Assembly (NCBI GenBank): GCA_047639555.1
Contig: JBLIOE010000020.1
Location: forward strand, 4,100-68,099
DNA from: Candidatus Aldehydirespiratoraceae bacterium
GTDB taxonomy: Bacteria > Actinomycetota > Acidimicrobiia > Acidimicrobiales > Aldehydirespiratoraceae
Direction of reading: 5' to 3'
DNA length: 64,000 bases
Numbering within the stretch: the first letter of the stretch is position 1; the number at the start of each line of letters is the position of its first letter. Both the position numbers and the translations under genes were made by a program. The notes under the pieces are model-generated. The model was not told the DNA's origin, did not search any database, and saw only the letters and a program-made list of their open reading frames with translations. Of this stretch, positions 19,748 to 41,993 are shown piece by piece.

Positions 19748-19865
19748 TTGAATTCCCCCACGGTTCAGTCACGGACGATAGTCCGCGTCGACTTAACAGT
19801 GTTAACCCAGTGAGGTATGTTTCGACAAGCGCTTCTTTGCGCCGCACCGAAACCGGGGGACATTT

Positions 19866-22765: not shown

Positions 22766-23185
22766 CTACCCCAGCCAGCCGGTCGGGATCGATCCCGCCT
22801 GTAGGCGCAATACCCAGAGTCCGATCGCCAGGATGGCGTTCGCGACGACAACCGGCAGCAGCAGCTGTCGGAGCCGCTCGCGCCACGCCGGGGCGAACAC
22901 AAGGACCACGCCGACGATGACGCACTGGACGGCGAGCAGCACCACCCACGGGTGGTGCTGCCACGCGCCAACAACGTCGCCTCGGCCCAGGCGGTGGAGA
23001 GCTCGGGTGCCGCCGCAGCCGGGGCAATAGCCGCCCGTGCATCGACGGAACGGGCAGATGGCGAAACCGTCGTCGCCCGACGCGGTGATGATGAGCACGC
23101 CACCGACAACACTCGCGATTGCTACCGGAAAGGCGGCGAATGTTTGATCAGCCGAGATAGCTGGCTTCGATTTGGCTTGGGTCAT
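22766..23185 (-). CDS. DUF2752-type small membrane protein
   Basis: CPFRRCTGGYCPGCGGTRALHRL followed by hydrophobic helices. The start is uncertain (23185 or 23227), and both options overlap the 3' end of livF. Confidence 0.6.
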   Translation of the reverse strand: MTQAKSKPAISADQTFAAFPVAIASVVGGVLIITASGDDGFAICPFRRCTGGYCPGCGGTRALHRLGRGDVVGAWQHHPWVVLLAVQCVIVGVVLVFAPAWRERLRQLLLPVVVANAILAIGLWVLRLQAGSIPTGWLG

Positions 23186-24607: not shown

Positions 24608-24629
24608 TGCTTGCACGGTACTGACTGAG

Positions 24630-29138: not shown

Positions 29139-30224
29139 ATGAACGACGACGAGAAGGTTCTGTCCGGGGAAGCGTGGGCGGAGTTCTGTGATCAGCTGAA
29201 GGCCGCGGGCGAGTTGGTGCAGACGCGCTCCGAAGACGACCTCGACAAGGCGGAGGGGTATCGCTACCTCACTCGCCTTCTTCGCGGCGGGCTGAGCAGC
29301 TATTTCGAGACGGGCGACTCGAAATTTCCCGTCATTCGACCAATGCCGTACCAGCTGAAGATCGGGTCAGATAACCCCGACTCGAACTACATGACTACTC
29401 CGATTGATGGTCGGCTGAACTATCGCATCACCGGCCATCGCGGCACTGTTCACTATCTGTCCATCAGCGCGTTCGCCGGCAACTATGGGGCGGGTCAGGA
29501 TCGACTGGGTTTGATGGGGTTCATCGACGGTAACGATCTGTTGGTCGACGACGATGGCCAGGTCGAGATCTTTGTTGGTCCTACTCCACACGATCACAAC
29601 TGGGTGTCGACAAGACCCGAACCGGGCAGTCTTGGTATCCGCCAGTTCTTCCTCGACCGCACCACGGAGACCGAGGCCGACCTCCACATCGAGTGCCTCG
29701 ACCATGACGAGTCACCGAAAAATCTCACCCCCGAAGGGCTGGGGAAGCAGCTGGCCGGTGCGTCAATGTTTGTGGCCGGCTGTTCGGAAATTTTCACGGG
29801 ATGGGTCGACGACCTCATGGAGGAGAGCTGCAACGCGTTCACCACGAAGGCGGCGCCAATGGGCGGCGCGTGGGGCGACCCAAATCAGATCTTCCGGCAT
29901 GGTGGGTTTCGGCTCGCAGAAGGCGAGGCGCTGATCATCGAGTTCACTCCGCCCGAGTGCTTCTACTGGAACTTCCAGGTGAACAATCGGTGGATGGAGA
30001 GCCTCGACTATCGCTGGCTTCCGGTCACCATCAACAAGCACACCGTTCGCCTCGAAGACGATGGATCAGTGCAGTTGGTGCTCGCCCATCGCGATCCCGG
30101 CTTCGGCACCTGGATGACTACGCACGGGCATACACACGGCACGATCGGGCTTCGGTGGAATCAGGCCGAGGAAGACGTGGAGCCCACGATTCGGTTGGTC
30201 AACCTCGACGACGCACCATCGTGA
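29139..30224 (+). CDS. conserved hypothetical protein (DUF1214-like), paralogue of 14408..15595
   Basis: WAEFCDQLKAAG, EGYRYLTR, YRITG, YWNFQVNNRWMESL, LVLAHRDPGFGTW, HGTIGLRW. Confidence 0.5.
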   Translation: MNDDEKVLSGEAWAEFCDQLKAAGELVQTRSEDDLDKAEGYRYLTRLLRGGLSSYFETGDSKFPVIRPMPYQLKIGSDNPDSNYMTTPIDGRLNYRITGHRGTVHYLSISAFAGNYGAGQDRLGLMGFIDGNDLLVDDDGQVEIFVGPTPHDHNWVSTRPEPGSLGIRQFFLDRTTETEADLHIECLDHDESPKNLTPEGLGKQLAGASMFVAGCSEIFTGWVDDLMEESCNAFTTKAAPMGGAWGDPNQIFRHGGFRLAEGEALIIEFTPPECFYWNFQVNNRWMESLDYRWLPVTINKHTVRLEDDGSVQLVLAHRDPGFGTWMTTHGHTHGTIGLRWNQAEEDVEPTIRLVNLDDAPS

Positions 30225-30861
30225 TGCCGTCGCCCACGGTGAGCTGGACCACTTCGACGCGCTCATCGGCGGCGATGAAGTCATTGAGCTTCCGTAGCGC
30301 GATCGTGTCGTCGTCTTCGGCGCCGGAGTCGGGCAACACCGCGCCGCTCCACAGCGTGTTGTCGATCAGAATCACGCCCCGGGGTGAGAGCCGAGCGAGG
30401 ATCTCCTCGTAGTAGCCCTGGTAGCCGCCCTTGTCCGCGTCGATGAAGGCAAAGTCGATCGTGGGTTCGGCCGGGAGGGCCTGCAGCGTTTCGAGCGCAG
30501 GCGCCAGCTGCAGGTCGATCTGGTCGGCAACGCCGGCTGCCTCCCAATGGGGGCGGCCGATCGAGGTCCACTCGTCGCTGATGTCGCAACAGAGCAATCG
30601 CCCACCGGGGGCAAGGCCGCGCGCAATACACAAGGCCGAGTAGCCGGTGAACGTGCCGACCTCGACGGCGAACTTCGGCTGCATCGTGGCGGCCAAGATC
30701 GACATGAAGGCGCCCTGGTCCTGGCCGATCTGCATGATTGACATCACGCCGACCTTCTCGCTGGTGTCTTCAATCAGAGCTCGCTGGATGGCATCGGGAC
30801 GGGTGCTGTGGGCGACGACATAGTCGGCGACCTCGGGCGTGGCGATGGAAACGCGGCTCAT
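30199..30861 (-). CDS. class I SAM-dependent O-methyltransferase (caffeoyl-CoA OMT-like, family 3)
   Basis: VEVGTFTGYSALCIARGL, FAFIDADKGGY, LIDNTLWSG. Confidence 0.85.
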   Translation of the reverse strand: MSRVSIATPEVADYVVAHSTRPDAIQRALIEDTSEKVGVMSIMQIGQDQGAFMSILAATMQPKFAVEVGTFTGYSALCIARGLAPGGRLLCCDISDEWTSIGRPHWEAAGVADQIDLQLAPALETLQALPAEPTIDFAFIDADKGGYQGYYEEILARLSPRGVILIDNTLWSGAVLPDSGAEDDDTIALRKLNDFIAADERVEVVQLTVGDGITMVRRRG

Positions 30862-31559
30862 GATGCTCGTGGAGTAGGGACAGGCGGATCGGGATAGTTC
30901 ATCGAGGCGGCGACATCGTCATCAGACATCGCCGCCAGGATCGCGAGTACCTCTTCGGGATACCCCATCGCGGGCTTGGTGGTGTCGAGCGGGGGCTGGG
31001 CCATCGATCCCGGTTCGCCATTCGGATCGGCGGGTGGATTGCGATACGCGGCGAGCTCAGCGGTGCTGATCCCGGCCAGCGCGACGACCTCCGGGTCGAT
31101 CCAATTGTCGGCCGGAATGGCGGTGGCCGATGTCGCGACCTCAAGGGTCAATCCTTCCGGGCCGCCGAAGTAGATCGAGTGGCACATGCCGTGATCGACC
31201 GGACCGAGCACGGTGACCCCATGGTCGCGAATGCGGTCACGCAATCGGAGCAGTTGGTCGAGATCGTCGGCGTTGAACGCGACGTGTTGCATTGTGCCCG
31301 GAGCCGAGGGGTCGGCCGGTGTGCCGGAGTGGGTGACACCTGGGATCGCCTCGATCTCGCCATTGGCGGCCATCTCCACGAACGCGACCGAACACGACGG
31401 GTTGAGTTCGACGAACGCATGCCAGGCCTCGACGCCATGCATCCAATACAACGCGACCAGCTTTGCGCCAAGTACCTGGGTGAAGAACTCGATCTGGGTC
31501 TTCACACTGGCGGTGGAGATGGCGAGGTGGTGAACGCCGGTGGGTTGCGTGACGGTCAT
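30858..31559 (-). CDS. VOC (glyoxalase/bleomycin-resistance/dioxygenase) family protein
   Basis: GVHHLAISTASVKTQIEFFTQVLG...HVAFNADD...HGMCHSIYFGGPEGLTLEV. The start is ATG 31559 (the longest ORF reaches 31583). Confidence 0.75.
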   Translation of the reverse strand: MTVTQPTGVHHLAISTASVKTQIEFFTQVLGAKLVALYWMHGVEAWHAFVELNPSCSVAFVEMAANGEIEAIPGVTHSGTPADPSAPGTMQHVAFNADDLDQLLRLRDRIRDHGVTVLGPVDHGMCHSIYFGGPEGLTLEVATSATAIPADNWIDPEVVALAGISTAELAAYRNPPADPNGEPGSMAQPPLDTTKPAMGYPEEVLAILAAMSDDDVAASMNYPDPPVPTPRAS

Positions 31560-31560
31560 G

Positions 31561-32403
31561 TCAGTTGGCTTTCTGGTTGGCAAGCTCGACGAGTTGGCGA
31601 CGGCACCACTCGGCGACGATGGGGGAGTACTCCCGCGTGTGAAACATCATCAGCTGATGCACTCCTCCCGGATGTTCGTACACCTCCACCGGCCCGCCAA
31701 CAAGTGCCGCGACGGCACGCACAATGGCCGGTGCAGCAATTGGGTCGTTCTCGCCGACGGTGAAGAGAATCGGGCTCGTGTTGTCGGCGGGAGCCACGAC
31801 CGGGTCGTAGGTGTAAAGCGTGGCGTACGAGGCGAGGTCGAAGTACCAACTATTGAGCGGGTCGGTTTCCTTCTGCTCGAGTGCTCCCTTGTAGCCGTAG
31901 TCCTCGTCGAGATCGAGGAAACGACGGATGTCGAAGCGGGCGGTCTCGCCGACTTCGGCCAGGATCCGCTGGCCATCGGGGGTGCGCCACGGCGACTGCA
32001 GGGCCGCATCGGTGCCGGGGACGGCGTAACCCATCAGGATCGCGCCGGCGACGTGCTCCGACGTTCCCACGAGGCCATACGCCGGCATCACGCCCAGACT
32101 GGATCCCTTGGCAAACACCGGGAGACCGGTGAGGTCGTGGATATGGGCGGCCACTTTCGCGCCGGCCTCGACCCATTCATCGACGGTCCATTTGCCTTGA
32201 CGGGTGGCCATGGCCGATCGTCCGTGACCGGGCAGATCGACGGACCACACATCAACGCCGCGGGCGGCGTGATGCCCGCAGAACTCGTCGTAGATACCGC
32301 CGTGTCCACCCATGCCGTGAATGACAAGCAACGCGTGATCGGGGTTGGGGCCTTCGAATCGGTAGGTAAACGTGCCCTCGATAATGTGTTCGGTTCTTTG
32401 CAC
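31561..32403 (-). CDS. alpha/beta hydrolase (lysophospholipase/monoacylglycerol-lipase-like)
   Basis: LLVIHGMGGHGG, nucleophile elbow G-S-S-L-G, C-terminal GGVHQL. Confidence 0.75.
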   Translation of the reverse strand: MQRTEHIIEGTFTYRFEGPNPDHALLVIHGMGGHGGIYDEFCGHHAARGVDVWSVDLPGHGRSAMATRQGKWTVDEWVEAGAKVAAHIHDLTGLPVFAKGSSLGVMPAYGLVGTSEHVAGAILMGYAVPGTDAALQSPWRTPDGQRILAEVGETARFDIRRFLDLDEDYGYKGALEQKETDPLNSWYFDLASYATLYTYDPVVAPADNTSPILFTVGENDPIAAPAIVRAVAALVGGPVEVYEHPGGVHQLMMFHTREYSPIVAEWCRRQLVELANQKAN

Positions 32404-32471
32404 GGAGACCTCTCGTGGCTGGCTGTCCCCACCGTAGGGGCAGCCAGCCAGAGAGAGGAATACGTTGTTCG

Positions 32472-34094
32472 CTAGATGTTGGCGATGAAGGTGGCCAACG
32501 CCTCATCGGCCGCTTCGAGGTCGCGCTGCTGTGGCGCCTGCACCTCGACTCGCACGAGATAGCCGGCATTCAGCGGAGCTGCAGCAAGGATGATGTAGTA
32601 CGTGTCGGTGCCACCGCAGTTGCCGTAGATCTGCAGTGTTCCCGCATACAGCGGGTCTTCGTAGGGCTCGGAGCCGAGGTCGTCACAAACCCCCGAGAAG
32701 TCCCGCTCAAGCAGGAGCGCACCGATATCCGCCGCAGTCCGACCTGGGGCTGATTCAACGATGATGCCGGGTACCGACCAGCTGTCTTGCCAACCCGCGA
32801 TGTCAGGTGAGGCCCAGATGCTTGGTCCGAAGTTTGGGTTCGGTGTGCCGTCTACTTCGGTCCAGGCTGTCGGGATCGAGACCGAGATCAGGCCCTGGTC
32901 GTCGGTGACTTCGGTATAGGAATACGGCGCACCGACGGGAGCGCTGGTGCCGGAGTCGGCGGGTCCATCAGTGTCGCCGCCCAACACGGTGGCCGCGATG
33001 AGCGGCAGTTCGATCGGATCACCGTTGATCTGGCCGCTCAGCACGAGGTCGAGCGACGGACGGTAAATCTCGACGTCCATGGTCGAGTCGTCACCCTGGG
33101 TGCGGAGCACGTCGCAATAGTCCGACATGGTGCCGTCGGTCGCGACGACGAGGTTCTCCAGAGAGATCAACACGTCGCCAGGCTCGATGCCCGCGCTGTC
33201 GGCCGGTGAGCCGCTTTCCACGCTGGAAATGAAGATGCCCGAGAGGCCGCTGTCGAACTGTTGTGCTTCGCCGTTGATGCCGATGGAGTCAACGTTGTTG
33301 CCAGCCATGAGTTGCTCGATGACCGGCCGAGCGTCCTGCGCACCAATCGCGTAGTTGGTGTTGAAATCGTCGCTACCGGCGTAGTTGATGCCGATGACTT
33401 CGCCGTTCTCGTCGACGAGCGGTCCGCCCGAGTTTCCGCCGAGAATCTGCGCGTCGTGTTGGAGCACGCCGTCAACGCTGGCCCAGCTCGATTCGCCGCC
33501 GGCATTGGTGGAGCCGACGATGCCGCTCGTGAGGGTGAAGTCGAGGTTGTCGAAGTCGATCTCGTCGGCCGCGGGGAAGCCGGCGGAGAACACATCGAGC
33601 CCGACCGTGATTGGGTCCTTTCGGAAGGACAGTGGCGTGTAGCCGTCGCCTTCGAGGTCGACGATCGCGAGATCGCTGCACTCGCTGACCGCCACGATGC
33701 GGGCGTTGAGTGACTCGCCATCGGAGAAGCTCACGTCGAGGGTGGCCGCGCCTTGCACCACGTGGTTGTTCGTGACCGCGAGGCCGTCTTCGGAGATCAC
33801 GAATCCGGTGCCGGTGAAGCCCGCGTTGTATGCGGCGGCACCGCCTGAGTCAATGAACGTTCCCTGGCCTTGGATCTGCACTACCGATTGTTCCACCTGC
33901 GAGATGTTGAATACCGCAGGTGCCTCGGTCGCGGTTGTGGTGGTCGTTTCTTCGGTGGTTCCTGCTGCGGTCGTGGTCGGGGCGGTTTCTCCGCCTGGCT
34001 CGCCACCGCCGCTGCATGCGGCACTGAAAATTGCCAGCGCGAGGAACATGATCGATATACGTCGCATGAATAGCTCCCTTTTTGTTTCGGCCAT
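32472..34094 (-). CDS. secreted trypsin-like serine protease with PDZ domain (HtrA/S1C-like) lipoprotein and extra C-terminal domain
   Basis: Lipobox FSAAC, Thr-rich linker, VTNNHVV (His), GNSGGPLVD (Ser), PDZ-like GSPADSAGIEPGDVLISL, and ~170 additional C-terminal residues. An alternative start is 34067. Confidence 0.8.
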   Translation of the reverse strand: MAETKRELFMRRISIMFLALAIFSAACSGGGEPGGETAPTTTAAGTTEETTTTTATEAPAVFNISQVEQSVVQIQGQGTFIDSGGAAAYNAGFTGTGFVISEDGLAVTNNHVVQGAATLDVSFSDGESLNARIVAVSECSDLAIVDLEGDGYTPLSFRKDPITVGLDVFSAGFPAADEIDFDNLDFTLTSGIVGSTNAGGESSWASVDGVLQHDAQILGGNSGGPLVDENGEVIGINYAGSDDFNTNYAIGAQDARPVIEQLMAGNNVDSIGINGEAQQFDSGLSGIFISSVESGSPADSAGIEPGDVLISLENLVVATDGTMSDYCDVLRTQGDDSTMDVEIYRPSLDLVLSGQINGDPIELPLIAATVLGGDTDGPADSGTSAPVGAPYSYTEVTDDQGLISVSIPTAWTEVDGTPNPNFGPSIWASPDIAGWQDSWSVPGIIVESAPGRTAADIGALLLERDFSGVCDDLGSEPYEDPLYAGTLQIYGNCGGTDTYYIILAAAPLNAGYLVRVEVQAPQQRDLEAADEALATFIANI

Positions 34095-34123: not shown

Positions 34124-35371
34124 TTACACCCCCGAAAGAAGTTCTCTGTTGAGACTCTCCGTGGTCGCCTCACCACACAACGCCATCGTTCGACGCATTC
34201 CGGACCACAAGAAGTCCAAGAGCCAGTCGACGCCCGGTTCGCCGGCCGCGCCGAGGGCGTAGAGATACGGTCGGCCGAGCATCACCGCGTCGGCGCCAAG
34301 GGCGACGGCTTTCACGATGTCGCTGCCACGACGAACGCCGCCGTCCGCGATGATCTCGATGTCATCGCCGACCGCATCGCGGCAGGGGGCGACGAGATCG
34401 ATCGGCGCAGGCGAGTCGTCGAGTTGACGCCCACCATGATTCGAAAGACAGGCGGCATCGACGCCATGATCGCGGGCGAGTTCGGTGTCGGCGACGGACT
34501 GGATGCCCTTCAGCACAATCTTCCCGTCCCAGATCGACCGGAGCCATTCGATTTCCTTCCAGGACAGAGAGGGGTCGAATTGAGAGTTCATATGGGCGGC
34601 AAGATCTACGGCACTCGATCCGTCAGGGATCGCGCTGGCTGCGGTGCTGGTGGCCACGTTCGCGAAGACGATCGGTTCGTTGCGAAGGAAGTTCCATGTC
34701 CAGCTTGGACGGCGAGCACCATCAACGAGCGTGCCTACGCCGAGCTTGGGTGGAAGCTCCATGCCGCGACGAACGTCGCGTTCTCGGCGCCCGAGGTTCG
34801 CAGTATCGACCGTGAGAAGTAGAGCCTCGTAGTTCGCGGCGGCCGCCCGTTCGATCATGTCGCGCACCAAACCTCGGTCGCGCCACACGTAGACCTGGAA
34901 CCAGAGGCGACGGTTGCCCTCGCCGCCCCACGGGACTTCGTCGCTTGCTGCCGCCATCTCCTCTATAGAGCGGGTGCCCATTGTCGAAAGGGCGTAGGGG
35001 ATCCCGGCTCGCGCGCAAGCGCGGGCGACGGCCAACTCACCCTGTGGGTGGGCGATTCGGGTAAATCCCGTCGGGGCCAGGACGGCCGGGAACGGGGTGG
35101 ATCGGCCGAGGAGTCGACCGGAGGTGTCGATATCGCTGACATCACGAAGGACACGCGGGATCATGCCGAGCCGGGCGTAGCCGTCGACGTTGTTGGCCAG
35201 CGCTCGTTCGTCTTCTGCGCCTCCATCGATGTAGTCGAAGACGCCGGCCGGAAGCCGACGCTTCGCGTGCCGGCGAAGATCGTCGACGTTGGCAGTAGTC
35301 AGTAGCCGGCGCCTGTTGCCGTTGGGTTCGAAGCGCCGGAATTGGAGGACCGAACGCAGCGACTCCAACAT
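34124..35371 (-). CDS. FMN-dependent alpha-hydroxy-acid oxidase/dehydrogenase (LldD/glycolate-oxidase family)
   Basis: FDYIDGGAEDE, WFQVYVWRDR, LLLTVDT, SNHGGRQLD, DGGVRRGSDIVKAVALGA. The start overlaps the stop of the upstream ABC gene (ATGA). Confidence 0.85.
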   Translation of the reverse strand: MLESLRSVLQFRRFEPNGNRRRLLTTANVDDLRRHAKRRLPAGVFDYIDGGAEDERALANNVDGYARLGMIPRVLRDVSDIDTSGRLLGRSTPFPAVLAPTGFTRIAHPQGELAVARACARAGIPYALSTMGTRSIEEMAAASDEVPWGGEGNRRLWFQVYVWRDRGLVRDMIERAAAANYEALLLTVDTANLGRRERDVRRGMELPPKLGVGTLVDGARRPSWTWNFLRNEPIVFANVATSTAASAIPDGSSAVDLAAHMNSQFDPSLSWKEIEWLRSIWDGKIVLKGIQSVADTELARDHGVDAACLSNHGGRQLDDSPAPIDLVAPCRDAVGDDIEIIADGGVRRGSDIVKAVALGADAVMLGRPYLYALGAAGEPGVDWLLDFLWSGMRRTMALCGEATTESLNRELLSGV

Positions 35372-38300
35372 CAGCTGTCGCTGCGGTCGATCGCCCGTTC
35401 GTCGGTGCCGAGGTAGGAGGCGATCACGGCGGGGTCGCTGCGGACAGCCTCTGGATCGCCTTCGGCGATCACGGTTCCCGCCTCGAGACAGTAGACCCGG
35501 TCGCTGATGCTCATGATGAGCGGCATGTCGTGTTCGATGATGAGCATCGACGCACCGATCTCGCGGCGAATCTCCATGATGAGTGGACCGAACGCTTCGG
35601 CCTCGCGCTGGGCGACACCGGCCGTGGGCTCATCAAGGCACAGCACGTCGGCGTCAACGGCGAGAAGGCCGCTGAGTTCAACGATGCGACGGGTGCCGGT
35701 GGAGAGATCGGAGACAAACGAATCGGCATAGCGGCCAAGGCCGAGGAAGTCGATGAGTTCGTCGGCCTCGCTGCGCATCCGACGCTCCGACGCCATGTCG
35801 AGGAACAACGCACTCTTCGCGAACGAGGAGGGGTGGCGGGCTTCAAGTGCCACCTGGACACACTCACGAACGGTCAGCTCGGGGAACAGCGTGGCGGCCT
35901 GGAAGGTACGGCCGAGGCCGAGTGATGCTCGCTTCGGCGAGCTCAGTCCTTCCACATTCTTGCCCAGGAGCACGACCTTGCCGACGGAAGGCACGTAGCC
36001 GCCGATGGCATTCATGATGGTGGACTTGCCTGCGCCGTTGGTGCCGATCAGGCCGACGATCTCGTCCTTGCCGATTTCGATACTGACATCGTTGACCGCG
36101 ACGTTGCCGCCGAATCGGACGGTGATGTTGCGGGTCGACAATGCGACCTCGCGGCCCGAGTCGGAGACCGGGAGTGTGGGGTACACCTTGGGTGGACGGG
36201 GCGCCGCGGCGATCATGTCTCGCTGGAACCAGCGACCGACCATCAGCGGCCAGACGAAGGGCACAACCGGCTCGACGAGGAGGTACAGCGAGTATCCGAC
36301 CTTGGTGCCGGGCGCACCGATATGGGCCGCCGACTTCTGCGAAATCTTCACCAGTAAGGCCAGCGAGACCAGGCCCGAGATGAATGACGCCACCATGTAG
36401 AGGCCGAACCAACCGTTGTCGCCGTTGCCGGCGAGATGGTCGACTGCGGCGAGGGCAATAGTGGCCAGGCTGGCCACCTTCAGAACCAACACGATGCCGC
36501 TCAGTGCGGACTCCCACATCGGCGGAGTCTCCGAGGCGGTCTTGGTCGTTCCGTCGTCTCGTTTCAGAGCCTGCGGAGTTGCGGTGGTGCTCGTTGTCTC
36601 CACGAGGCCGTAGCGCCGCTCGGCTCGTACCACCGCCGCGTCGCGGACCTTGTAGGCGATCTGGACGAAGCCGCCGGGGAAGTACATCAACATCACGAGG
36701 AAACCCACGCTCGAGGTGACGAGGCTGATGAGGGCGTTGTCGGGGAAGAAGGTGGGAAGACCGCGCACCCAGAAGGCACCCAAGACCGGACCGATCACGG
36801 AGCCGAGGCCACCGATCACGACCATGTTGACGACCTGGAGTGAATCGCCGATTTGGAAGTGCGCTTCGGTGAAACGAATGTTGCGGGCGGCGTTGGCAAA
36901 CACCGCGCCGCCCAGGCCCGCGATGCCGCCGGCGACCGCAAACGCCGTGAGCTTCATGCGTACGGGCGAGACGGTGTACGCCGACGCAGTGTCGGTGTTG
37001 TCTCGCACTGCGATGATCGATCGACCAATGCCGGACCGTCGAAGGCGTCCGATCACGAGGATGCAAAGAATCAGGCAACCAAGGGCGAAGTAGAAGTACG
37101 TCCGTTGGTCCTTGAGATCCCAGGTGTAGAACCAGCCACGTTCGAACTTGACTGAACTGTCGCCGTTGCTGAAGAACGGTCGGTGGTAGATGTATTTCTC
37201 TGCCGCGATCGCGAACGCAAACGTGGAGATCGCGAGCAAGATTCCTCGCACACGGAGCGCGCCGATACCCGTGATGGCGGCGATGCCAGCGGTGGTGAAC
37301 ACCGCGATCACCATTGAGGGCACCGCGGGGATGCCGCTCCACTGCACATCGATAAGTCGAGTCTCGGCATAGCCGATGTCGAACTCGACGCCTCGGTTGA
37401 GCGCGGCGGCGGTGAGCGCGCCAATGCCGGCGTAGGACATCTGGGCAAGCGACACCTGGCCGGACCAGCCGGTGATGACGGTGAGCGAAGCGGTGACCAT
37501 CGCGAACGCGGCGATCGTGCTGTAGAGGAAGAACTTCGAGGGCACGATTCTCGTGGGTACCTCGTTCCAGAACCAGATGTATTGGTCAGCGAAGCTGAAG
37601 AGGCTCTCGTGATGCCATGAGATCATCACGATGACAAACAACAGCGTGCCGATCGCCAGGCGAGGCATGTGGCGGATCCACCAGATCTGACGGACGTGGG
37701 CCGGAAGGGGCTTCACCTTCGGCGCAAAGTTCAGTGGCCCTTCGTCGTTGTTGTTCCGGCTCTGCCAGTACATCGCGATGATGACGGCGATGAAGACGAG
37801 CAGGGTTGACAAGCCGGGGTCACGGTTGAAGTTGAAGGTGAAGAGGTTGTCGGCGAGCGCAATAACAACGCCGCCCAGCATCGCCCTCGGGAATGAGCGC
37901 ATTCCCGCGATGACTGCGGCGGCGAGGGCATTGGTCAGCGTGAACGGGCCGAGGTTGTCGATGCCCGACGGGCTGTTGCCACTGCTTAACAGGATCATCG
38001 AGAGCGTGGCGAGGAAGCCGGCGATTGTCCAGACGACCGACGAAACAACGTGGGGATTGATGCCGGAGAGTCGGCTGAGCTGGGGGTTGTCGGCCGACGC
38101 GGTAATCGACTTGCCGAACGTGGTGCGGCTCATCAGGAGGCCGAGAAGAACGGCCAGGATCGGAACGAGAATCAGCTTCTGGATCTCGGGTCCCTTGATG
38201 AGGATGCCCTCATCGGCGCCGATACCAATGGAAGGGAAGCCCTCGAACACGCCGCCCACGCCTTCCCAACTTCGACCAATCGCGGCCGGATACTTCACCT

Positions 38301-38685
38301 GCGAGCCCTCGACGTCGGGGAAGGTGAGGAGCACGATCGCTCGCCAGAAGTCGGCGATGGCCACTGTGGCGATCAACAAAACAATGCGCGGTCTATGGAA
38401 GAGCCGTTTGACCACGATCACTTCGGTGACGAGGCCCAAAAGGGCGCCAACCAGCAGCGAGATCACGAGCGCAAGCCAGAACGGGAAGTTCCAGTTCAGG
38501 ACTAAGAGTGCGAAGAGCGCAGCACCGGGCAAGCCCATGTTGCCGGCGCCGAAGTTGATCACTCGCGTACTGCGGTAGATCAGCACGATGCCCATGGCCA
38601 GAAGGCCGAAGACCAAGCCTTGGACGAGTGTGAGGAAGAGCAGGCGACGGGTGATCCACGTGGCCAGTAGGAAAGTGCTCTCCAT
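35371..38685 (-). CDS. triple-fused HAAT ABC transporter protein: LivH-like permease + LivM-like permease + extra TM insert + LivG-like ATPase
   Basis: 1104 aa. The N-terminus GLLAMGIVLIYRSTRVINFGAGNMG is LivH-like (~37720-38685). A LivM-like block follows (~36650-37720), then an extra ~3-helix insert (~36140-36650). The ATPase has GLIGTNGAGKSTIM, LSTGTRRIVEL and LCLDEPTAGV (35371-~36140). Confidence 0.8.
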   Translation of the reverse strand: MESTFLLATWITRRLLFLTLVQGLVFGLLAMGIVLIYRSTRVINFGAGNMGLPGAALFALLVLNWNFPFWLALVISLLVGALLGLVTEVIVVKRLFHRPRIVLLIATVAIADFWRAIVLLTFPDVEGSQVKYPAAIGRSWEGVGGVFEGFPSIGIGADEGILIKGPEIQKLILVPILAVLLGLLMSRTTFGKSITASADNPQLSRLSGINPHVVSSVVWTIAGFLATLSMILLSSGNSPSGIDNLGPFTLTNALAAAVIAGMRSFPRAMLGGVVIALADNLFTFNFNRDPGLSTLLVFIAVIIAMYWQSRNNNDEGPLNFAPKVKPLPAHVRQIWWIRHMPRLAIGTLLFVIVMISWHHESLFSFADQYIWFWNEVPTRIVPSKFFLYSTIAAFAMVTASLTVITGWSGQVSLAQMSYAGIGALTAAALNRGVEFDIGYAETRLIDVQWSGIPAVPSMVIAVFTTAGIAAITGIGALRVRGILLAISTFAFAIAAEKYIYHRPFFSNGDSSVKFERGWFYTWDLKDQRTYFYFALGCLILCILVIGRLRRSGIGRSIIAVRDNTDTASAYTVSPVRMKLTAFAVAGGIAGLGGAVFANAARNIRFTEAHFQIGDSLQVVNMVVIGGLGSVIGPVLGAFWVRGLPTFFPDNALISLVTSSVGFLVMLMYFPGGFVQIAYKVRDAAVVRAERRYGLVETTSTTATPQALKRDDGTTKTASETPPMWESALSGIVLVLKVASLATIALAAVDHLAGNGDNGWFGLYMVASFISGLVSLALLVKISQKSAAHIGAPGTKVGYSLYLLVEPVVPFVWPLMVGRWFQRDMIAAAPRPPKVYPTLPVSDSGREVALSTRNITVRFGGNVAVNDVSIEIGKDEIVGLIGTNGAGKSTIMNAIGGYVPSVGKVVLLGKNVEGLSSPKRASLGLGRTFQAATLFPELTVRECVQVALEARHPSSFAKSALFLDMASERRMRSEADELIDFLGLGRYADSFVSDLSTGTRRIVELSGLLAVDADVLCLDEPTAGVAQREAEAFGPLIMEIRREIGASMLIIEHDMPLIMSISDRVYCLEAGTVIAEGDPEAVRSDPAVIASYLGTDERAIDRSDS

Positions 38686-40910
38686 CAGCCGCCTTCCTTT
38701 CCGAGGAACACAGCCCGAGCGAGGTCGTCACGTTCGGCGAGCTCTTGGGCTGATCCTTCGAAACGCACGGCACCCTTTTCGAGGAAGATCGCACGGTCGG
38801 ATACCGCCAGCGCGACATTGAGGCTCTGCTCGACGATGATCATCGTCTGGCCGGCTTCGCGGAGCCGGTCGATATGGGTGAGAAGGTCTTGCACAACGGT
38901 TGGGGCGAGACCGAGGCTGAGCTCATCGATGATGAGAATGTCGGGTTCGTGGAGCATCACTCGGGCGAGCGCCAGCATCTGCTGCTGGCCACCGGAGAGG
39001 TCGCCGGCTCGTTCTTCAAGACGGTCGCTGAGTACGGGGAAGAGCTCGAGTACGTGGGCGATGCGGCGATCGCGGTCGTCGGTGTCTTTGCGGTACTGGT
39101 AGGCGCCGACCTGAAGATTGTCGCCAATCGTGAGGTTGGGCCACACGCCCTTACCGCCCGGCAACATCTGGATGCCGAGCTTGGCCCGCATCTCCGGGCT
39201 CGCAAATGTGGCGGTGCGGCCGTGGTAACGAACCACTCCACGCTCGGGGGTCTCGAGTCCGGCGATGACCTTGAGGATTGTGGACTTGCCCGCACCGTTG
39301 GTGCCCAGCAACGCGAGGGTCTCGCCCTGTGCCACGTCGAAGGACACATCGAACAGCACCTGTACCTGGCCGTAGCTGAAGTCGATGTGGTTGACCTGCA
39401 TCACGGGAATGTCGTCGCCGGCCGCGACGATGTCGAAGTACGCCTGCTCTTCCAAGAGCTCTTCCACGACAAGGGAGAGATCACGGCGGATGGCTTTACT
39501 GCCCTTGATGATGTTGTACCCACCGAGCGGCATGAAGATCAGCGTGAGGCTGGTAATTGTGAAGCGCTCGCCCCACTCGTTCTGCATGAAGCCGCTGAGC
39601 AGCCCACCGCCAATGCCGCCGATCGCAAACATGAAGAAGGTGATGATCGCCGTACCCATGCCGCGCAATCGGTAGGGGACCACGCCCTGAATCGACGGCT
39701 GGATCATCGAGAATGCGGCGCCGAGGAAGCTGCCGGTTGCCGTAGCGAAGATGACGAAGAGCCACACGTTGGGCATCGCGAATTGAATCGGAACGAGGAA
39801 GCCGACCGGGATGAGGAGGGCACCCACGATTCGTAGCGCCTTGTCGGGCGACTTTCGGAAGGTCTGGTCGAATTTCTTGCCGATGAACGGCAGCAGGAGA
39901 ACAATCACGACGCCGGTCGGCGCCACCGCAAAGCCGCGCTCGAGGGCGTTGAGCCCGAACTCCTCTTCCAGGTAGAAGCTGGTGATCGAGCCGGCTGGGA
40001 AGAGGGCGAAACCGATCGCGGCGAGGCCGATCGTCATCGAGCGGACGGTGTCGATTCGCCAGATGCGGTTGAAGGCCGCGCCGATGGAGATCGGGATCTC
40101 TTCGCCGTCGGAGCCGAAGCTGTGGCCGAGGACGTCCTTCTTTTCCCACTGCCCTCGTTCGGGCTCGGGGATGGCGAACGCCAGGACCGCGAGAACGAGG
40201 ACCGGGAGGCTTAGTGCGAGGTAGGCCCACCGCCAACCCTCGGTGCCGCCCACGGCGACGGCAATACCGCCGACGAGAATTGGGCTGGCGGCGTTGAACA
40301 CGCGCCCGACGGCGGCGTTGAGCGCGTACATGCGGCCGCGGATCGGAATGGGATATGTATCGGCCAACAGCGTTGAGTGGACCGTGATGGTGTTGGCCTT
40401 CGAGATGCCCGTGAAGAACCGAGTCCAGAAGAACATGAAGGCGTTGACGGCGAGGCCGCTCATGAAGGCGAAGACGGCGAACGCCATGCTCGCGATGGCA
40501 ACGATCGGGCCGCGGCGAACTCGGTCGGCGAGGTAACCCATCGGGCCGGCGCCGAGCACGAAGAAGGCGACGGAGGCTACGGAGATGAAGGTGATGAGGC
40601 CATCGGAGACACCGAAGGTTTCTCCGATGTCGGGGCCAAGGATGTTGACGGCCGCGCCCTCGAGCTCGTCCATTGAGTTGAGCGCCAGGAGAACAACGAA
40701 GGTGTACGGCCCGCCCTTGGCGAAACCTTCGCGGAGCGTCATTTCTTCCGAACCGACGCCGGGGAGGAGGTCATCGGCGAAGAGCACTCCCTTCGACCTC
40801 TGCGCCTGGGCGTCTTGCCGGGCTGCTTCCTCGTCAAGAACTGCCGCAGTAAGCGATGCCGCCGACCGCGGCTCCTTCTCTGACTCGCTCACCAGAATCC
40901 CCCAAGTCAT
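38685..40910 (-). CDS. MFS-type 12-TM domain fused to a LivF-like ABC ATPase
   Basis: 741 aa. MFS signatures are GYLADRVRRGPI (motif A-like), PIPIRGRMYAL and GWRWAYL, with 10-12 helices (~39480-40750). The C-terminus has MQVNHIDFSYGQ..., LLGTNGAGKSTIL, LSGGQQQMLALARV and LIIDELSLGLAP (38685-39400). The stop overlaps the next start (ATGA). Confidence 0.8.
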   Translation of the reverse strand: MTWGILVSESEKEPRSAASLTAAVLDEEAARQDAQAQRSKGVLFADDLLPGVGSEEMTLREGFAKGGPYTFVVLLALNSMDELEGAAVNILGPDIGETFGVSDGLITFISVASVAFFVLGAGPMGYLADRVRRGPIVAIASMAFAVFAFMSGLAVNAFMFFWTRFFTGISKANTITVHSTLLADTYPIPIRGRMYALNAAVGRVFNAASPILVGGIAVAVGGTEGWRWAYLALSLPVLVLAVLAFAIPEPERGQWEKKDVLGHSFGSDGEEIPISIGAAFNRIWRIDTVRSMTIGLAAIGFALFPAGSITSFYLEEEFGLNALERGFAVAPTGVVIVLLLPFIGKKFDQTFRKSPDKALRIVGALLIPVGFLVPIQFAMPNVWLFVIFATATGSFLGAAFSMIQPSIQGVVPYRLRGMGTAIITFFMFAIGGIGGGLLSGFMQNEWGERFTITSLTLIFMPLGGYNIIKGSKAIRRDLSLVVEELLEEQAYFDIVAAGDDIPVMQVNHIDFSYGQVQVLFDVSFDVAQGETLALLGTNGAGKSTILKVIAGLETPERGVVRYHGRTATFASPEMRAKLGIQMLPGGKGVWPNLTIGDNLQVGAYQYRKDTDDRDRRIAHVLELFPVLSDRLEERAGDLSGGQQQMLALARVMLHEPDILIIDELSLGLAPTVVQDLLTHIDRLREAGQTMIIVEQSLNVALAVSDRAIFLEKGAVRFEGSAQELAERDDLARAVFLGKEGG

Positions 40911-40916
40911 CCGGAT

Positions 40917-40966
40917 ATTGTGCCTGAACTACCAGCACAATGTCTCACTACTGCTGTGACAGTAGT
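40917..40966 (-). promoter_or_regulatory. two adjacent inverted repeats in the leader/promoter of the fused ABC operon
   Basis: ATTGTGC-N11-GCACAAT (40917..40941, ending 7 nt from the ATG at 40910) and ACTACTG-N6-CAGTAGT (40947..40966). No obvious SD lies between them and the start. Confidence 0.35.
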
Positions 40967-41060
40967 CGCAGCCCCACTCTTCGGGCTAGCCGTGAGCTTT
41001 CACCCCCAGGCTGAGCCGTGGCAGGCTTTCACTGATCCACCCCAAGCTCAAGAGGCAGTT

Positions 41061-41993
41061 ATGGCATTTGAAACGACCACCGCGGAAGTCATCGCCGGAA
41101 TCGACCTGACCGGCACCATCGCTGTCGTTACCGGCGCGACCACCGGCCTGGGTCGTGAAACCGCACGCACACTCGCCGGAGCGGGAGCCCACGTAGTTGT
41201 GTGCGGTCGCTCAGCGGAGAAGTGTGAAGAGTCCGTCGCCGCGATCCGCGAATCCGTTCCCGCGGCATCGCTCGAGATCGAGCCGTTCGACCTCGCCGAT
41301 CTCGGCACGGTGCGGGCGGGTGCGGCCGCCATTCTCGAACGCCACGACGCGATCAACATTCTCGTCAATAACGCGGGCGTGATGTTCACCCCGGAAGGCC
41401 GCACCGCCGATGGCTTCGAAACTCAGTTCGGCACGAATCATGTCGGCCACTTCCTCCTCACCAATCTTTTGATGCCCTCGCTACTTGCGGGGTCACCAGC
41501 GCGAGTGGTGAACCTGTCAAGCGCCGGGCACGGTTTCGGCGATGTCCGATGGGACGATCCAAACTTCGACGACGCGCCGTACGACAAGTTCGAGGCCTAC
41601 GGACAGTCGAAGACCGCCAACATCTTGTTTGCGCTCGAACTCGACCGTCGCCATGCCGAGGCCGGCCTTCGTTCGAACGCGGTCCACCCCGGGATGATCA
41701 TGACGGACCTGGCCCGGCACATGGGTGGAGACGACATGGAAGAACTCGGGCGGCGAGCCGCGGCACAAGCGAAAGCGGGTACCGGCGGAGGGCTCCCCGA
41801 GTTCAAGACGATCGAACAGGGTGCGGCAACGTCGATCTATTGCGCGGTCTCGACCGACATGGAAGGTGTCGGCGGTCGATATCTCGACAACGTCGAGTTC
41901 GCCGAACCGGCGCCCTACGCCACCGACCTCAAGGCTGCGGCGCGGCTGTGGGCGATGTCGGAAACACTTGTCGGCGAGTCCTTCAGCTCTTAG
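41061..41993 (+). CDS. SDR-family oxidoreductase (retinol-dehydrogenase/WWOX-like)
   Basis: ATG 41061 with AGAGG upstream. VAVVTGATTGLG, NNAG, YGQSKTAN. Confidence 0.85.
   Translation: MAFETTTAEVIAGIDLTGTIAVVTGATTGLGRETARTLAGAGAHVVVCGRSAEKCEESVAAIRESVPAASLEIEPFDLADLGTVRAGAAAILERHDAINILVNNAGVMFTPEGRTADGFETQFGTNHVGHFLLTNLLMPSLLAGSPARVVNLSSAGHGFGDVRWDDPNFDDAPYDKFEAYGQSKTANILFALELDRRHAEAGLRSNAVHPGMIMTDLARHMGGDDMEELGRRAAAQAKAGTGGGLPEFKTIEQGAATSIYCAVSTDMEGVGGRYLDNVEFAEPAPYATDLKAAARLWAMSETLVGESFSS

Follow-up and report, generated by a model that had tools for sequence, protein, structure and literature searches.

The operon described here belongs, with a probability of about 0.6 in our estimation, to a family of binding-protein-dependent Liv-type importers with a tethered, active MFS permease, and the binding-protein gene would be gone from the locus in the lineage under study. 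The operon lies in the window, that is, the whole 64-kb stretch of DNA that was analysed, which derives from an uncultured member of the Acidimicrobiales, 87% identical to MAG DHS20C19. Judging from the sequence, genes 1 and 2 of the operon between them encode a single, complete ABC transporter of the HAAT (Liv/Urt) type, with an MFS fold in addition. LivH, LivM and LivG are on one chain and LivF on the other, with the Walker A, Walker B and signature motifs intact in both ATPases, and the LivF chain carries a full 12-helix MFS permease at its N-terminus, joined by one long conserved helix. The MFS::LivF/LivHMG combination is an uncharacterised importer design common to hundreds of Acidimicrobiia species.

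Organization of the operon and its fused proteins

Three co-directional genes form the operon on the minus strand (Table 1). Their coordinates match exactly those given in a preliminary description of this DNA, every peptide motif quoted there is found in the translations, and the neighbours are also as described, i.e., a divergent SDR gene and an HtrA-like protease, which carries Trypsin_2 and PDZ domains. The gene junctions were however misread as ATGA overlaps: both (38685 and 35371) read TGATG, in which stop and start have one base in common. The Pfam SDR domain begins only at residue 67 of the long SDR ORF. The divergent intergenic region upstream of gene 1 presumably acts as promoter; promoter-like sites in it were not above chance, and no Rfam elements were found. 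The window also contains another Liv-type set, missed previously, which is conventional and has a binding protein of its own.

Table 1. Features of the operon and its surroundings, with positions in the window and residues (aa) of the encoded proteins.
Feature	Position	Strand	Description and evidence
SDR gene, divergent	40920-41993	+	Long ORF; probable true start ATG 41058
Divergent intergenic region, gene 1/SDR	40911..41057	.	Presumed promoter region
Gene 1	38685..40910	-	MFS::LivF fusion, 741 aa; ORF, Pfam, NCBIfam, AF2
N-terminal cytoplasmic region, aa 1-60	40731..40910	-	Amphipathic helix and LLPGVG directly before TM1
MFS permease module, aa ~61-472	39495..40730	-	12 TM helices; Pfam, AF2, invariant residues
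Linker helix, aa 473-503	39402..39494	-	TM12 to NBD; AF2, invariant residues
LivF-type nucleotide-binding domain (NBD), aa 504-741	38688..39401	-	NCBIfam, motifs, Foldseek
Gene 2	35371..38685	-	LivH::LivM::insert::LivG fusion, 1104 aa; ORF, Pfam, NCBIfam, AF2
LivH-like membrane domain, aa 1-305	37771..38685	-	First BPD_transp_2 stretch, aa 17-304; TM helices
Inter-domain linker, LivH to LivM	37546-37770	-	75 aa; precedes LivM-like domain
LivM-like membrane domain, aa ~381-691	36613..37545	-	Second BPD_transp_2 stretch; AF2
Clade-specific insert, aa 692-845	36151..36612	-	Segment lengths, AF2, hydropathy
LivG-type NBD, aa 846-1104	35374..36150	-	NCBIfam, BCA_ABC_TP_C, motifs, Foldseek
Gene 3	34124..35371	-	FMN-dependent alpha-hydroxy-acid dehydrogenase/oxidase, 415 aa; ORF, Pfam FMN_dh
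Protease gene, Trypsin_2+PDZ	32472-34094	-	Pfam; neighbour of gene 3

The HMM check of the gene 1 protein confirmed the proposed N-terminal MFS part and complete C-terminal LivF-type ATPase, as well as their borders, with MFS_1 at aa 87-435 (E 1.8e-34, 119.7 bits against a Pfam cutoff of 33.4) and ABC_tran at aa 520-663. Its top NCBIfam matches, at aa 504-737, are of the UrtE/LivF type (UrtE 196 bits, LivF 168 bits, both below the equivalog cutoffs). The NBD contains Walker A GTNGAGKS, signature LSGGQQQ, Walker B ILIIDE and VEQS at the H-loop position, and its top Foldseek match is 1ji0 (TM-score 0.89 on target). In the AF2 model (pLDDT 79.3, pTM 0.72), the linker helix (474-497) continues directly from TM12; D477, L478, E487 and E488 of the linker are invariant in an alignment of 61 sequences. 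The N-terminal region is modelled with a helix at 16-40, at low pLDDT. In the LLPGVG motif, L49, P50, G51, V52 and G53 are invariant among the 61 sequences, a conservation that sufficed for using the motif as a genome search pattern. Within the MFS module, motif A (GYLADRVRRGPI) is retained in both halves, together with the Arg-Gly of TM4 and a GP-containing motif in TM5; the C-domain repeats motifs such as motif A, and TM1 has a conserved, membrane-embedded acidic cluster, D81-E82-L83-E84.

Domain searches of the gene 2 protein agree with the proposed succession of LivH, LivM, insert and LivG-type ATPase on a single chain: BPD_transp_2 in two stretches (E 5e-54), ABC_tran at aa 864-1022 and BCA_ABC_TP_C at aa 1072-1096 (Pfam), with top NCBIfam matches of LivG/UrtD type (LivG 198 bits, UrtD 183 bits, both below the cutoffs). 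Its NBD shows Walker A GTNGAGKS, Walker B VLCLDE and H-loop IIEH, and is matched by LptB and MJ1267 in Foldseek. In databases, its homologues carry the name 'branched-chain amino acid ABC transporter permease/ATP-binding protein'. Segment lengths around the LivM-like domain are conserved in 76 homologues, and the segment between LivM and LivG measures 148 aa in the window and in loci L004-L013, L018 and L044, 154 aa in L073 and about 21 aa elsewhere; the 128-aa TM insert is confined to the window's clade and L073. Instead of the approximately three helices described before, the AF2 model (pLDDT 77.7, pTM 0.76) gives a disordered linker, a TM hairpin of two long helices (723-752 and 758-782) and two short helices (792-804 and 811-827), with loops of about 5 residues and no extracytoplasmic domain. 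The insert is under relaxed constraint, with dN/dS of 0.37-0.49 in the TM part and about 1 in the linker, although all dN/dS values given here are only approximate because dS is near saturation. The window clade has thus acquired a two-helix membrane insert under weak constraint.

Recurrence of the fusions and role of the MFS module

Single proteins of about 735 aa that combine PF07690 and PF00005 form more than 120 independent clusters at 90% identity, and those of 930-1120 aa with PF02653, PF00005 and PF12399 more than 100. The fused proteins also occur in closed long-read chromosomes. The pairing of both fusions, reported previously for this locus, occurs in no fewer than 437 species-representative genomes, Acidimicrobiia with few exceptions, and in every locus with enough sequence; paralogous copies of the module are often several per genome. 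The possibility that the fusions come from assembly errors, frameshifts or mis-called ORFs, which had been raised from the beginning, is effectively refuted by their recurrence in identical form in hundreds of independent assemblies, closed chromosomes included, by purifying selection at the codon level across the junctions (approximate linker dN/dS of 0.06-0.22) and by AF2 models that are confident over the junctions.

When the MFS part was used as the only query against 1.84 billion representatives, 168 clusters matched at E<=1e-30. The full-length matches, down to 26% identity, are nearly all 700-750 aa long, and even at this distance the module is almost always fused to an ABC ATPase. Other permutations of the parts are LivHM with MFS::LivF::LivG, LivHM with LivG and MFS::LivF, and MFS alone as a called protein. 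Between paralogues, identity is 27-29% for the binding protein, 48-65% for MFS and 53-57% for the LivH/LivM membrane domains; the divergence of MFS follows that of LivH/LivM, and the binding protein diverges fast. This pattern is consistent with a binding-protein-dependent importer whose specificity would be set by the binding protein, and in which MFS would be a conserved component of the transport core, its third membrane module.

We think that MFS most likely works as a proton-coupled, conformationally active permease rather than as an inert anchor, because motif A, the TM4 arginine, the TM1 acidic cluster and the C-domain repeats are kept, with an approximate dN/dS of about 0.1 that equals that of the ATPases. 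A non-transporting domain that tethers LivF near LivHMG or recruits partners, like TMD0 of ABCC, would agree with the tendency of both ATPases to be membrane-tethered in this family (LivG via LivM and LivF via MFS), with the full set of membrane domains already present in the ABC part, which makes MFS supernumerary, and with the lack of a match to any named MFS subfamily (best NCBIfam score 48 bits against a cutoff of 418). However, such an anchor is unlikely: the canonical transport motifs persist across the family down to 26% identity, the dN/dS of the module (roughly 0.10-0.15) is as low as that of the ATPases and lower than that of LivH/LivM, and 12 helices with conserved intramembrane polar residues are not needed for anchoring.

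Another proposal is a true primary/secondary hybrid, in which LivF (with LivG) energises or gates MFS as an ATP-driven pump, in the way that ArsA acts on ArsB. The covalent connection via a long, conserved and probably rigid helix is kept in every permutation, and the whole-chain pTM of gene 1 may indicate a defined relative placement of the domains. Nevertheless, we consider it very improbable, since ABC NBDs engage coupling helices of ABC membrane domains, of which LivH and LivM are both available, whereas we know of no coupling helix for the NBD groove in MFS folds. Moreover, MFS-only called proteins exist, and Foldseek searches of the PDB revealed no solved structure with an NBD docked to an MFS. 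Returning to the active, tethered permease, MFS might be kept next to the ABC translocator to coordinate its own activity with the ATPase cycle, as the covalent linkage and the conservation suggest. It could carry the same solute, providing an additional route of low affinity, or else a counter-solute or product linked to it, although the equal conservation of MFS and the ABC membrane domains does not reveal which.

Binding protein and substrate of the window system

It was described correctly that no binding-protein gene adjoins the window operon, but its extension to this kind of system in general does not hold. In 48 of 83 loci, a family-specific, very divergent Peripla_BP_6 protein is encoded immediately next to the MFS::LivF/LivHMG pair. 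This lipoprotein accompanies the pair in most family members, the most divergent ones (26-32% identity) included, and is also present beside the MFS::LivF::LivG permutation (in L087 the order is LivHM, MFS::LivF::LivG, Peripla_BP_6), whereas head-to-head duplicated systems have a separate binding protein each. In the distant members L088 and L089, adjacent 'no-Pfam' proteins match the family binding-protein profile (E 2e-36 and 1e-47). No PDB relative of the family binding proteins was found. The database protein P0188 resembles a frameshifted read-through from a binding-protein gene into an MFS gene. As most family members, the most distant included, have both components, the suggestion that MFS replaces the binding protein fails at the family level.

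Of 84 loci, 36, the window among them, lack a family binding protein within 10 kb. The loci devoid of it form one syntenic lineage (66-87% identity), and L019, with the same synteny, still has the gene. No family binding protein was found in the 64-kb window or in L084/L085, the sole Peripla_BP_6 gene of the window being at 18362-19747, 15.6 kb from the operon, and a word-based search with the L019-type protein gave no match on the contigs of window-clade genomes. These data point to departure of the gene from the locus in the window's syntenic lineage, the binding protein being either encoded elsewhere or dispensable. In the second case, MFS and/or the new TM hairpin would take over substrate capture or gating in this lineage only. 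The stability of the state over 66-87% identity, the strong purifying selection on the transporter and the occurrence of the insert in this very clade speak for such independence. Still, we regard it as quite unlikely. MFS is much older than the loss, is found together with the binding protein in most family members and did not arise to substitute for it; the insert is weakly constrained and has no extracytoplasmic domain, L073 combines insert and binding protein, and Microthrix-like loci that lack the binding protein also lack the insert. Besides, orphan ABC operons served by binding proteins encoded elsewhere are common.

Gene 3, whose start overlaps the gene 2 stop by one base, encodes a protein with Pfam FMN_dh (E 5e-129, 430.7 bits) and the active-site segment SNHGGRQLD, which aligns end-to-end in a single stretch with the membrane-associated (S)-mandelate dehydrogenase 6bfg. 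It reaches none of the equivalog or subfamily cutoffs of NCBIfam (LldD 293 against 550, PRK11197 331 against 376, MftD 263 against 471, and also LOX). Of its earlier assignment as alpha-hydroxy-acid oxidase, the family stands, while oxidase versus dehydrogenase is not settled by sequence. An FMN_dh gene is at the same position in L004-L007, L009, L010, L013, L019, L084 and L085. Such a gene comes after the pair in no loci other than the window, roughly two-thirds of the window's closest relatives, and L019; 5 of the 13 loci of the insert clade and the remainder of the family lack it. The whole region around the loci that bear it is syntenic, so the adjacency may partly reflect inheritance and not function. 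The putative membrane-type dehydrogenase gene is translationally coupled downstream in the window and in those of its nearest relatives that have it, and this coupling suggests a 2-hydroxy acid as the import substrate of the window orthologue, perhaps an aromatic acid because amidohydrolase_2, O-methyltransferase and SDR genes surround the operon. The hydroxy-acid substrate put forward in the preliminary description has this local coupling in its favour, but the pairing is absent from the rest of the family and the suggestion is a weak one, local to the window's relatives.

Comparison with known systems

The closest known systems are LivHMGF/LivJK (E. coli LIV-I) and UrtABCDE (HAAT, TC 3.A.1.4), which likewise have a pair of membrane domains of the BPD_transp_2 type, one ATPase of the LivG/UrtD type with BCA_ABC_TP_C as its tail, another of the LivF/UrtE type in which Gln replaces the H-loop His and, as in most MFS::LivF family members, a Peripla_BP_6-type binding protein. 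In contrast, here the parts are fused into two chains and LivF bears a 12-TM MFS domain. The family binding proteins are very divergent, several of them under the Pfam cutoff, and the window operon has no binding-protein gene, has a TM hairpin between LivM and LivG, and its ATPases miss all NCBIfam equivalog cutoffs. The HAAT systems of Rhodopseudomonas palustris have Peripla_BP_6 proteins for aromatic acids or dicarboxylates/fatty acids, and their gene neighbours are CoA ligases and catabolic enzymes rather than amino-acid genes. The MFS::LivF family resembles them in its catabolic neighbours (AMP-binding ligases in 27 of 80 loci; Amidohydro_2, CoA-transferase and sulfatase in about 20 of 80 each), but we know of no MFS domain in the R. 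palustris systems. Gene 3 shares the FMN_dh domain and SNHGGRQLD with LldD, (S)-mandelate dehydrogenase MdlB, glycolate oxidase and 4-hydroxymandelate oxidase, differing from these families in its scores.

With the MFS superfamily, the module has in common an MFS_1 match above cutoff, 12 helices in two bundles, motif A, the TM4 Arg and the TM5 GP motif. Spinster/SPNS and EmrB are the closest solved permeases by sequence and aromatic-acid:H+ symporters the closest in NCBIfam, all of them weak matches. Unlike other MFS, it belongs to no named subfamily, nearly always has an ABC ATPase attached and has a conserved cytoplasmic N-terminal extension with LLPGVG. As had been stated, there seems to be no characterised example: none of an MFS plus ABC ATPase importer of such design was found in full-text literature searches, in an MFS review, in the PDB by sequence and fold, or in NCBIfam. 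Accessory domains of ABC proteins, such as TMD0 of ABCC and the C-terminal regulatory domains of MalK, MetN and ModC, are thought to regulate or scaffold, and are also additions to a core subunit beyond two TMDs and two NBDs. In MFS::LivF, however, the addition is an entire secondary-transporter fold, N-terminal on an importer NBD, for which PDB fold searches gave nothing comparable. The ArsA ATPase turns the ArsB carrier into a primary pump. In LplT-acyltransferase fusions, a secondary-carrier fold is joined to an enzyme (PMC8154325). Both resemble the MFS::LivF chain in the physical coupling of a secondary-transporter fold to a cytoplasmic catalytic module, but ArsA is not an ABC ATPase, ArsB is not accompanied by ABC membrane domains, and LplT is fused to an enzyme instead of a transport ATPase.

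Gene order and spread of the fusions

Translation of the open reading frames placed the three minus-strand genes of the operon exactly where the preliminary description had put them (see the table), and a Pfam search for the domain borders found MFS_1 and ABC_tran in the first product, two BPD_transp_2 stretches with ABC_tran and BCA_ABC_TP_C in the second, and FMN_dh in the third. The junctions, which had been read as ATGA stop-start overlaps, are both TGATG, with one base common to stop and start, a geometry of translational coupling. The flanking genes are those that had been named, a divergent SDR and a lipoprotein protease in which Pfam recognizes Trypsin_2 and PDZ. Base composition is even throughout the operon region, Rfam searches of the 64-kb window found neither a riboswitch nor any other RNA, and promoter and terminator scans gave nothing above chance.

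Coordinates of the features discussed. Positions are those of the window unless a related locus of another genome (L number, own coordinates), a database protein (P number) or residues (aa) are given.
Feature	Position	Strand	Remarks
MFS::LivF gene, 741 aa	38685-40910	-	ORF translation
LivHMG gene (LivH::LivM::insert::LivG), 1104 aa	35371-38685	-	ORF translation
FMN enzyme gene, 415 aa	34124-35371	-	ORF translation
N-terminal helix of MFS::LivF	aa 16-40		AlphaFold2; poorly ordered
LLPGVG motif of MFS::LivF	40752-40769; aa 48-53		cytoplasmic N-terminal extension, just before TM1
TM helices 1-6 of MFS::LivF	aa 68-99, 103-130, 133-152, 157-185, 188-220, 226-244		AlphaFold2
TM helices 7-12 of MFS::LivF	aa 287-318, 322-353, 355-377, 382-410, 413-446, 448-471		AlphaFold2
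Long linker helix of MFS::LivF	aa 474-497		AlphaFold2; runs on from TM12, then canonical NBD
Insert of LivHMG	aa 692-722; 723-752 and 758-782		AlphaFold2; disordered linker; two long helices, besides two short helices
Three genes between FMN enzyme and Methyltransf_3 gene	30858-34094	-	
HtrA-like lipoprotein protease	32472-34094	-	
280-aa ORF	31561-32403	-	
241-aa ORF	30858-31583	-	
Methyltransf_3 gene	30199-30861		
Second, conventional Liv-type set	16391-19747 and 23148-24661	-	separate from the fusion operon
Its Peripla_BP_6 protein	18362-19747	-	
Its LivH::LivM two-domain permease	16391-18346	-	
Its LivG-type ATPase	23852-24661	-	
Its LivF-type ATPase	~23148-23855	-	
RPE65-family carotenoid oxygenase	19866-21209	+	
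AMP-binding ligase	21209-22759	+	
SBP_bac_11/BPD_transp_1/ABC_tran set	25400-27536	-	also L084:18645-21161 and L085:19890-22208
PrnB-family gene and following class-V aminotransferase gene	3491-5793	+	
1405-aa protein	6267-10484	+	
Duplicated systems	L031, L034, L036, L038, L041, L046, L060: about 1-15200		
Duplicated systems	L066, L069, L072, L075: about 9900-21400		
Permuted system	L087:882-7757		LivHM (692 aa), then MFS::LivF::LivG (1020 aa), then Peripla_BP_6
Permuted system	L089:6327-13521		binding protein, MFS::LivF, LivHM (770 aa) and separate LivG
MFS-only proteins	P0215, P0219, P0247 (L086)		~460 aa, ending just past the start of the linker helix
Transposase genes	L085:6058-8444		IS110 and ISL3 families

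That the fusions might be artefacts of assembly or frameshift had been a declared concern, and it is dispelled by many independent clusters, by closed chromosomes and by selection that runs through the junctions. PF07690 and PF00005 stand together in one protein of ~735 aa in more than 120 clusters (90% identity), 61-97% identical to that of the window, and PF02653, PF00005 and PF12399 in one protein of 930-1120 aa in more than 100 such clusters. At least 437 relatives were confirmed with one genome per GTDB species and an MFS-only alignment; the best 80 of these are almost all Acidimicrobiia (Acidimicrobiales, Microthrix, Ilumatobacteraceae, Ca. Poriferisocius, Aldehydirespiratoraceae). Many of these come from closed chromosomes, and two copies occur in several genomes. 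The patterns for this species-genome scan were taken from a six-sequence MFS alignment; the 18 divergent MFS parts (A1) are too diverse for patterns. A search of 1.84 billion representatives with aa 1-500, the MFS part by itself, gave 168 clusters at E<=1e-30, and the full-length matches, down to 26-30% identity, are nearly all 700-750 aa; therefore, the MFS is fused to the nucleotide-binding domain (NBD) even in distant members. Moreover, purifying selection at the codon level spans the fusion junctions.

In the fused chains the MFS always sits at the N-terminal side of LivF, apart from rare cases in which an MFS-only protein is called, and the order of the other parts can be permuted. Head-to-head or tail-to-tail duplications of the whole system, with an own binding protein for each copy, are found in sponge-associated and other Acidimicrobiia, and several genomes, such as OZ246892.1 and NZ_OZ241965.1, hold at least two dispersed paralogous copies. 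The database protein P0188 (856 aa) begins like Peripla_BP_6 and continues with a low-complexity Arg/Ala-rich stretch and an MFS; rather than a genuine triple fusion, this is probably the product of a frameshift through which a binding-protein gene reads into the adjacent MFS::LivF gene. The transposase genes of L085 are inserted in the syntenic block upstream of MFS::LivF.

Architecture of the two fused proteins

The N-terminal domain of MFS::LivF does score as an MFS, as the preliminary description had staked its reading on: MFS_1 (PF07690) matches aa 87-435 with 119.7 bits, well above the cutoff of 33.4, and ABC_tran covers aa 520-663. The AlphaFold2 model (pLDDT 79.3, pTM 0.72), which we regard as confident, has 12 TM helices, arranged as two bundles of six with both termini in the cytoplasm, the topology that defines an MFS and into which a C-terminal cytoplasmic NBD fits. 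MFS motif A (G-x-L-A-D-R-x-G-R-K/R, TM2-TM3 loop) is present in the translation as GYLADRVRRGPI. Its residues D129, R130 and R133 are invariant among 61 homologues, together with D81-E82-L83-E84 in TM1, G168 in TM4, D184/Y186/P187/R191/R193, G225-W226-R227-W228, D348, R416 and, in the linker, D477/L478/E487/E488, while R164 of TM4 is kept in at least 90% of them. Six residues (R133, D184, R227, R325, R416, D477) are invariant in 18 divergent sequences as well, with identity down to 26%. The LLPGVG motif is also invariant among the 61 homologues and mostly retained in the most divergent ones; to our knowledge, no role has been described for a motif of this kind in an MFS protein. None of the named MFS subfamilies fits, the best NCBIfam model being the aromatic-acid:H+ symporter family with 48 bits against a cutoff of 418, and the best PDB sequence matches, Spinster and EmrB, are weak (E about 1e-7; 1.6e-7 for Spinster 1). 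Judged from its sequence, this part is a genuine MFS that falls outside the named subfamilies.

In the second protein, BPD_transp_2 (PF02653, E 5.1e-54) matches two stretches of LivH and LivM type, and the segment structure of these membrane domains is conserved across 76 homologues; ABC_tran (PF00005) lies at aa 864-1022 and BCA_ABC_TP_C (PF12399) at aa 1072-1096 (E 2e-10). Its AlphaFold2 model is likewise confident (pLDDT 77.7, pTM 0.76), and a PDB sequence search with this protein returned NBD matches only. Walker A, the signature and Walker B-Glu are intact in both NBDs, and the LivF NBD has the family-typical VEQS, with Gln, at the H-loop position where other NBDs have His. The top NCBIfam models are UrtE (196 bits) and LivF (168 bits) for the C-terminus of MFS::LivF, and LivG (198 bits) and UrtD (183 bits) for that of LivHMG, all of them under their equivalog cutoffs. 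By Foldseek, the LivF NBD is closest to the LivF-type 1ji0 (TM-score 0.89), and for the LivG NBD the best match is LptB (TM-score 0.92).

An extra segment of about three helices had been described between LivM and LivG; the segment exists, but it is modelled as two long helices, forming a TM hairpin, and two short ones. The LivM-LivG segment measures 148 aa in the window, L004-L013, L018 and L044, 154 aa in L073, and ~21 aa in all remaining loci. The insert evolves fast, with dN/dS of 0.37-0.49 in its TM part and ~1 in its linker, values that are rough with dS near saturation. As a built-in binding domain it was ruled out, for the modelled hairpin has very short loops and no extracytoplasmic domain. 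Nor does the insert go along with loss of the binding protein (SBP), since L073 combines the insert with a binding protein encoded 2.5 kb downstream, and those Microthrix-like loci that are SBP-less have neither.

Binding protein and role of the MFS module

The pair of MFS::LivF and LivHMG genes is present wherever the contig allows (83 related loci). In 48 of these, a protein related to that at L003:6752-8281, whose precomputed annotation is Peripla_BP_6, lies at most 10 kb from the pair and mostly adjoins it directly, either divergent immediately upstream of the pair or directly downstream of LivHMG. These binding proteins are very divergent, with 23-43 bits against the Peripla_BP_6 cutoff of 31.7 and no PDB relative by sequence. 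As they stay under the Pfam gathering cutoff, their label is often 'hypothetical', so that routine annotation would wrongly call these ABC systems binding-protein-less. Several of those beside the pair in L003, L019, L043, L066, L073, L088 and L089 have 23-29 bits or no precomputed Pfam hit, and the adjoining 'no-Pfam' proteins of L088 and L089, whose MFS parts have 26% and 32% identity, match the family profile with E 2e-36 and 1e-47. Since the binding protein is present even in the most divergent members, we take the ancestral parts list to be binding protein, LivH, LivM, LivG, LivF and MFS, in variable fusion; an MFS that belongs to the same ancestral set as the binding protein cannot have evolved as its replacement. 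The proposal that the MFS module replaces the binding protein thus fails at the family level, given the loci just counted together with L087, L088 and L089, and the reported lack of a binding protein holds only for loci such as that of the window.

In the window, a profile search found no family-type binding protein in the operon or in the whole 64 kb, and 36 loci including the window have none within 10 kb of the pair. Most of these SBP-less loci share one synteny (c324, Amidohydro_2, SDR, (APH), MFS::LivF, LivHMG, (FMN_dh), Methyltransf_3, (DUF1214), MscS), and the syntenic ones are orthologues with 66-87% identity to the window. In L019, with flanks as in this lineage, a binding protein and then a nitroreductase are encoded upstream of the pair, and FMN_dh downstream. 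As L019 keeps the gene amid the common flanks, the simplest reading is that the other members of the lineage have lost it at this locus or moved it elsewhere. A shared-word search of contigs for L019-type binding proteins gave 45 relatives, none of them on the contigs of window-clade genomes. The Peripla_BP_6 protein of the conventional Liv set was ruled out as a relocated partner: it scores 33 bits with a family profile from which it was left out, where true members reach 115-725 bits, and its own LivHM permease lies alongside. The HtrA-like protease matches this profile weakly (20 bits), most likely due to a low-complexity Thr/Ala-rich lipoprotein linker; its last ~190 aa carry no Pfam domain.

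The degree of conservation differs between the parts. Between divergent systems, identity is 27-29% for the binding proteins, 48-65% for the MFS, 53-57% for LivH/LivM and 67-75% for the NBDs, the binding protein behaving like the part that sets specificity and the MFS like a component of the conserved core. In comparisons with five close relatives, the MFS has a dN/dS of 0.10-0.15, which equals that of the NBDs (0.07-0.14) and is below that of LivH/LivM (0.14-0.22), all rough values because dS is near saturation. The MFS could be a passive, TMD0-like anchor, but because transport motifs and membrane-embedded acidic residues are kept, and in view of these identity and dN/dS patterns, we favour an active, proton-coupled permease held beside the ABC translocator and coordinated with it; its solute would be that of the translocator or a linked one. 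Another alternative is that the fused ATPase drives the MFS, by analogy with ArsAB, and for the window's lineage alone one can conceive of a binding-protein-independent importer, with the MFS possibly standing in for the missing binding protein. The strongest version would make MFS and ABC parts one mechanically coupled hybrid, the MFS being gated or driven by ATP binding and hydrolysis at LivF, or vice versa, and this hybrid would work as a binding-protein-independent Liv-type importer in the lineage whose locus has shed the SBP gene; we think this unlikely, at roughly one chance in seven. In any case, whether a binding protein is dispensable for a Liv-type importer is a question for which the SBP-less lineage provides a natural comparison.

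Genomic context and known transporters

The third gene product matches the TIM-barrel domain FMN_dh (PF01070) with 430.7 bits and has the catalytic His/Arg segment SNHGGRQLD in its translation, while it stays under every curated NCBIfam cutoff, those of LldD, MftD and lactate oxidase included. It aligns in a single stretch with the membrane-associated (S)-mandelate dehydrogenase 6bfg, whereas the alignment with glycolate oxidase is split around aa 212-257, a difference that points tentatively to a dehydrogenase with a membrane-binding segment. The FMN_dh gene comes immediately after LivHMG in the window, L004-L007, L009, L010, L013, L084, L085 and L019, and does not in L008, L011, L012, L018, L044 or any other clade. 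The gene association from which a hydroxy-acid substrate had been proposed exists in the window and these relatives but is no family trait, and a 2-hydroxy acid is a reasonable, local and unproven guess. Recurrent neighbours elsewhere in the family are CoA ligases (27 loci), sulfatases (20), Amidohydro_2 (19) and CoA-transferases (19), a context that points to organic-acid catabolism and not to amino-acid metabolism.

Several observations concern the rest of the window. In L084 and L085 the methyltransferase gene comes directly after FMN_dh; thus, the three-gene block between them in the window looks like a local insertion. The carotenoid oxygenase and ligase genes split the conventional Liv set, whose LivG end is syntenic in L084. 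The SBP_bac_11/BPD_transp_1/ABC_tran set, molybdate- or tungstate-like, belongs to the conserved synteny downstream of the operon and is preceded in relatives by a MerR+TOBE regulator. A full-length match to the PrnB family (monodechloroaminopyrrolnitrin synthase, E 9e-158), unexpected in an Acidimicrobiales genome, is immediately followed by a class-V aminotransferase. The 1405-aa protein combines FHA (Yop-YscD-like) and FtsK/SpoIIIE ATPase domains, and may be a relative of type VII secretion (EccC-like) or DNA-translocase proteins.

The mechanisms of primary (ABC) and secondary (MFS) transport are regarded as two worlds apart. A stable covalent union of a complete MFS fold with an ABC ATPase, present in hundreds of species and constrained like the ATPase itself, would in our opinion be a natural test case for cross-talk between both mechanisms. 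The architecture is genuine, widespread and under strong selection. It is visible in databases but uncurated, with JGI concatenating two COG names and NCBI using 'MFS transporter', 'ATP-binding protein' or 'branched-chain amino acid ABC transporter permease/ATP-binding protein'; fusions named only by one of the first two, beside binding proteins often called 'hypothetical', make an annotation blind spot. Since multi-copy systems occur in abundant marine, sponge-associated and wastewater Acidimicrobiia (Poriferisocius, Microthrix and relatives), these systems may be a major unrecognised route of organic-carbon uptake there.

Like the preliminary description, we came upon no characterised example: no MFS-ABC-NBD fusion is described in the full-text literature that was searched or in a comprehensive MFS review, which is no proof of absence; LplT-enzyme fusions are covered in that review (PMC8154325). 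In Foldseek searches of the PDB only the NBDs superpose, and no solved chain joins an MFS fold to an NBD. Apparent full-length matches to ABC exporters are NBD-dominated and, with rmsd of 19-31 Å, meaningless for the membrane part. By domain criteria, the ABC part belongs to the HAAT (Liv/Urt) family, having two BPD_transp_2 domains and ATPases of LivG/UrtD and LivF/UrtE type; the co-encoded Peripla_BP_6 binding protein, missing at the window's locus, is found in the family. The system is thus a Liv-type importer with a conserved third membrane module, the MFS.
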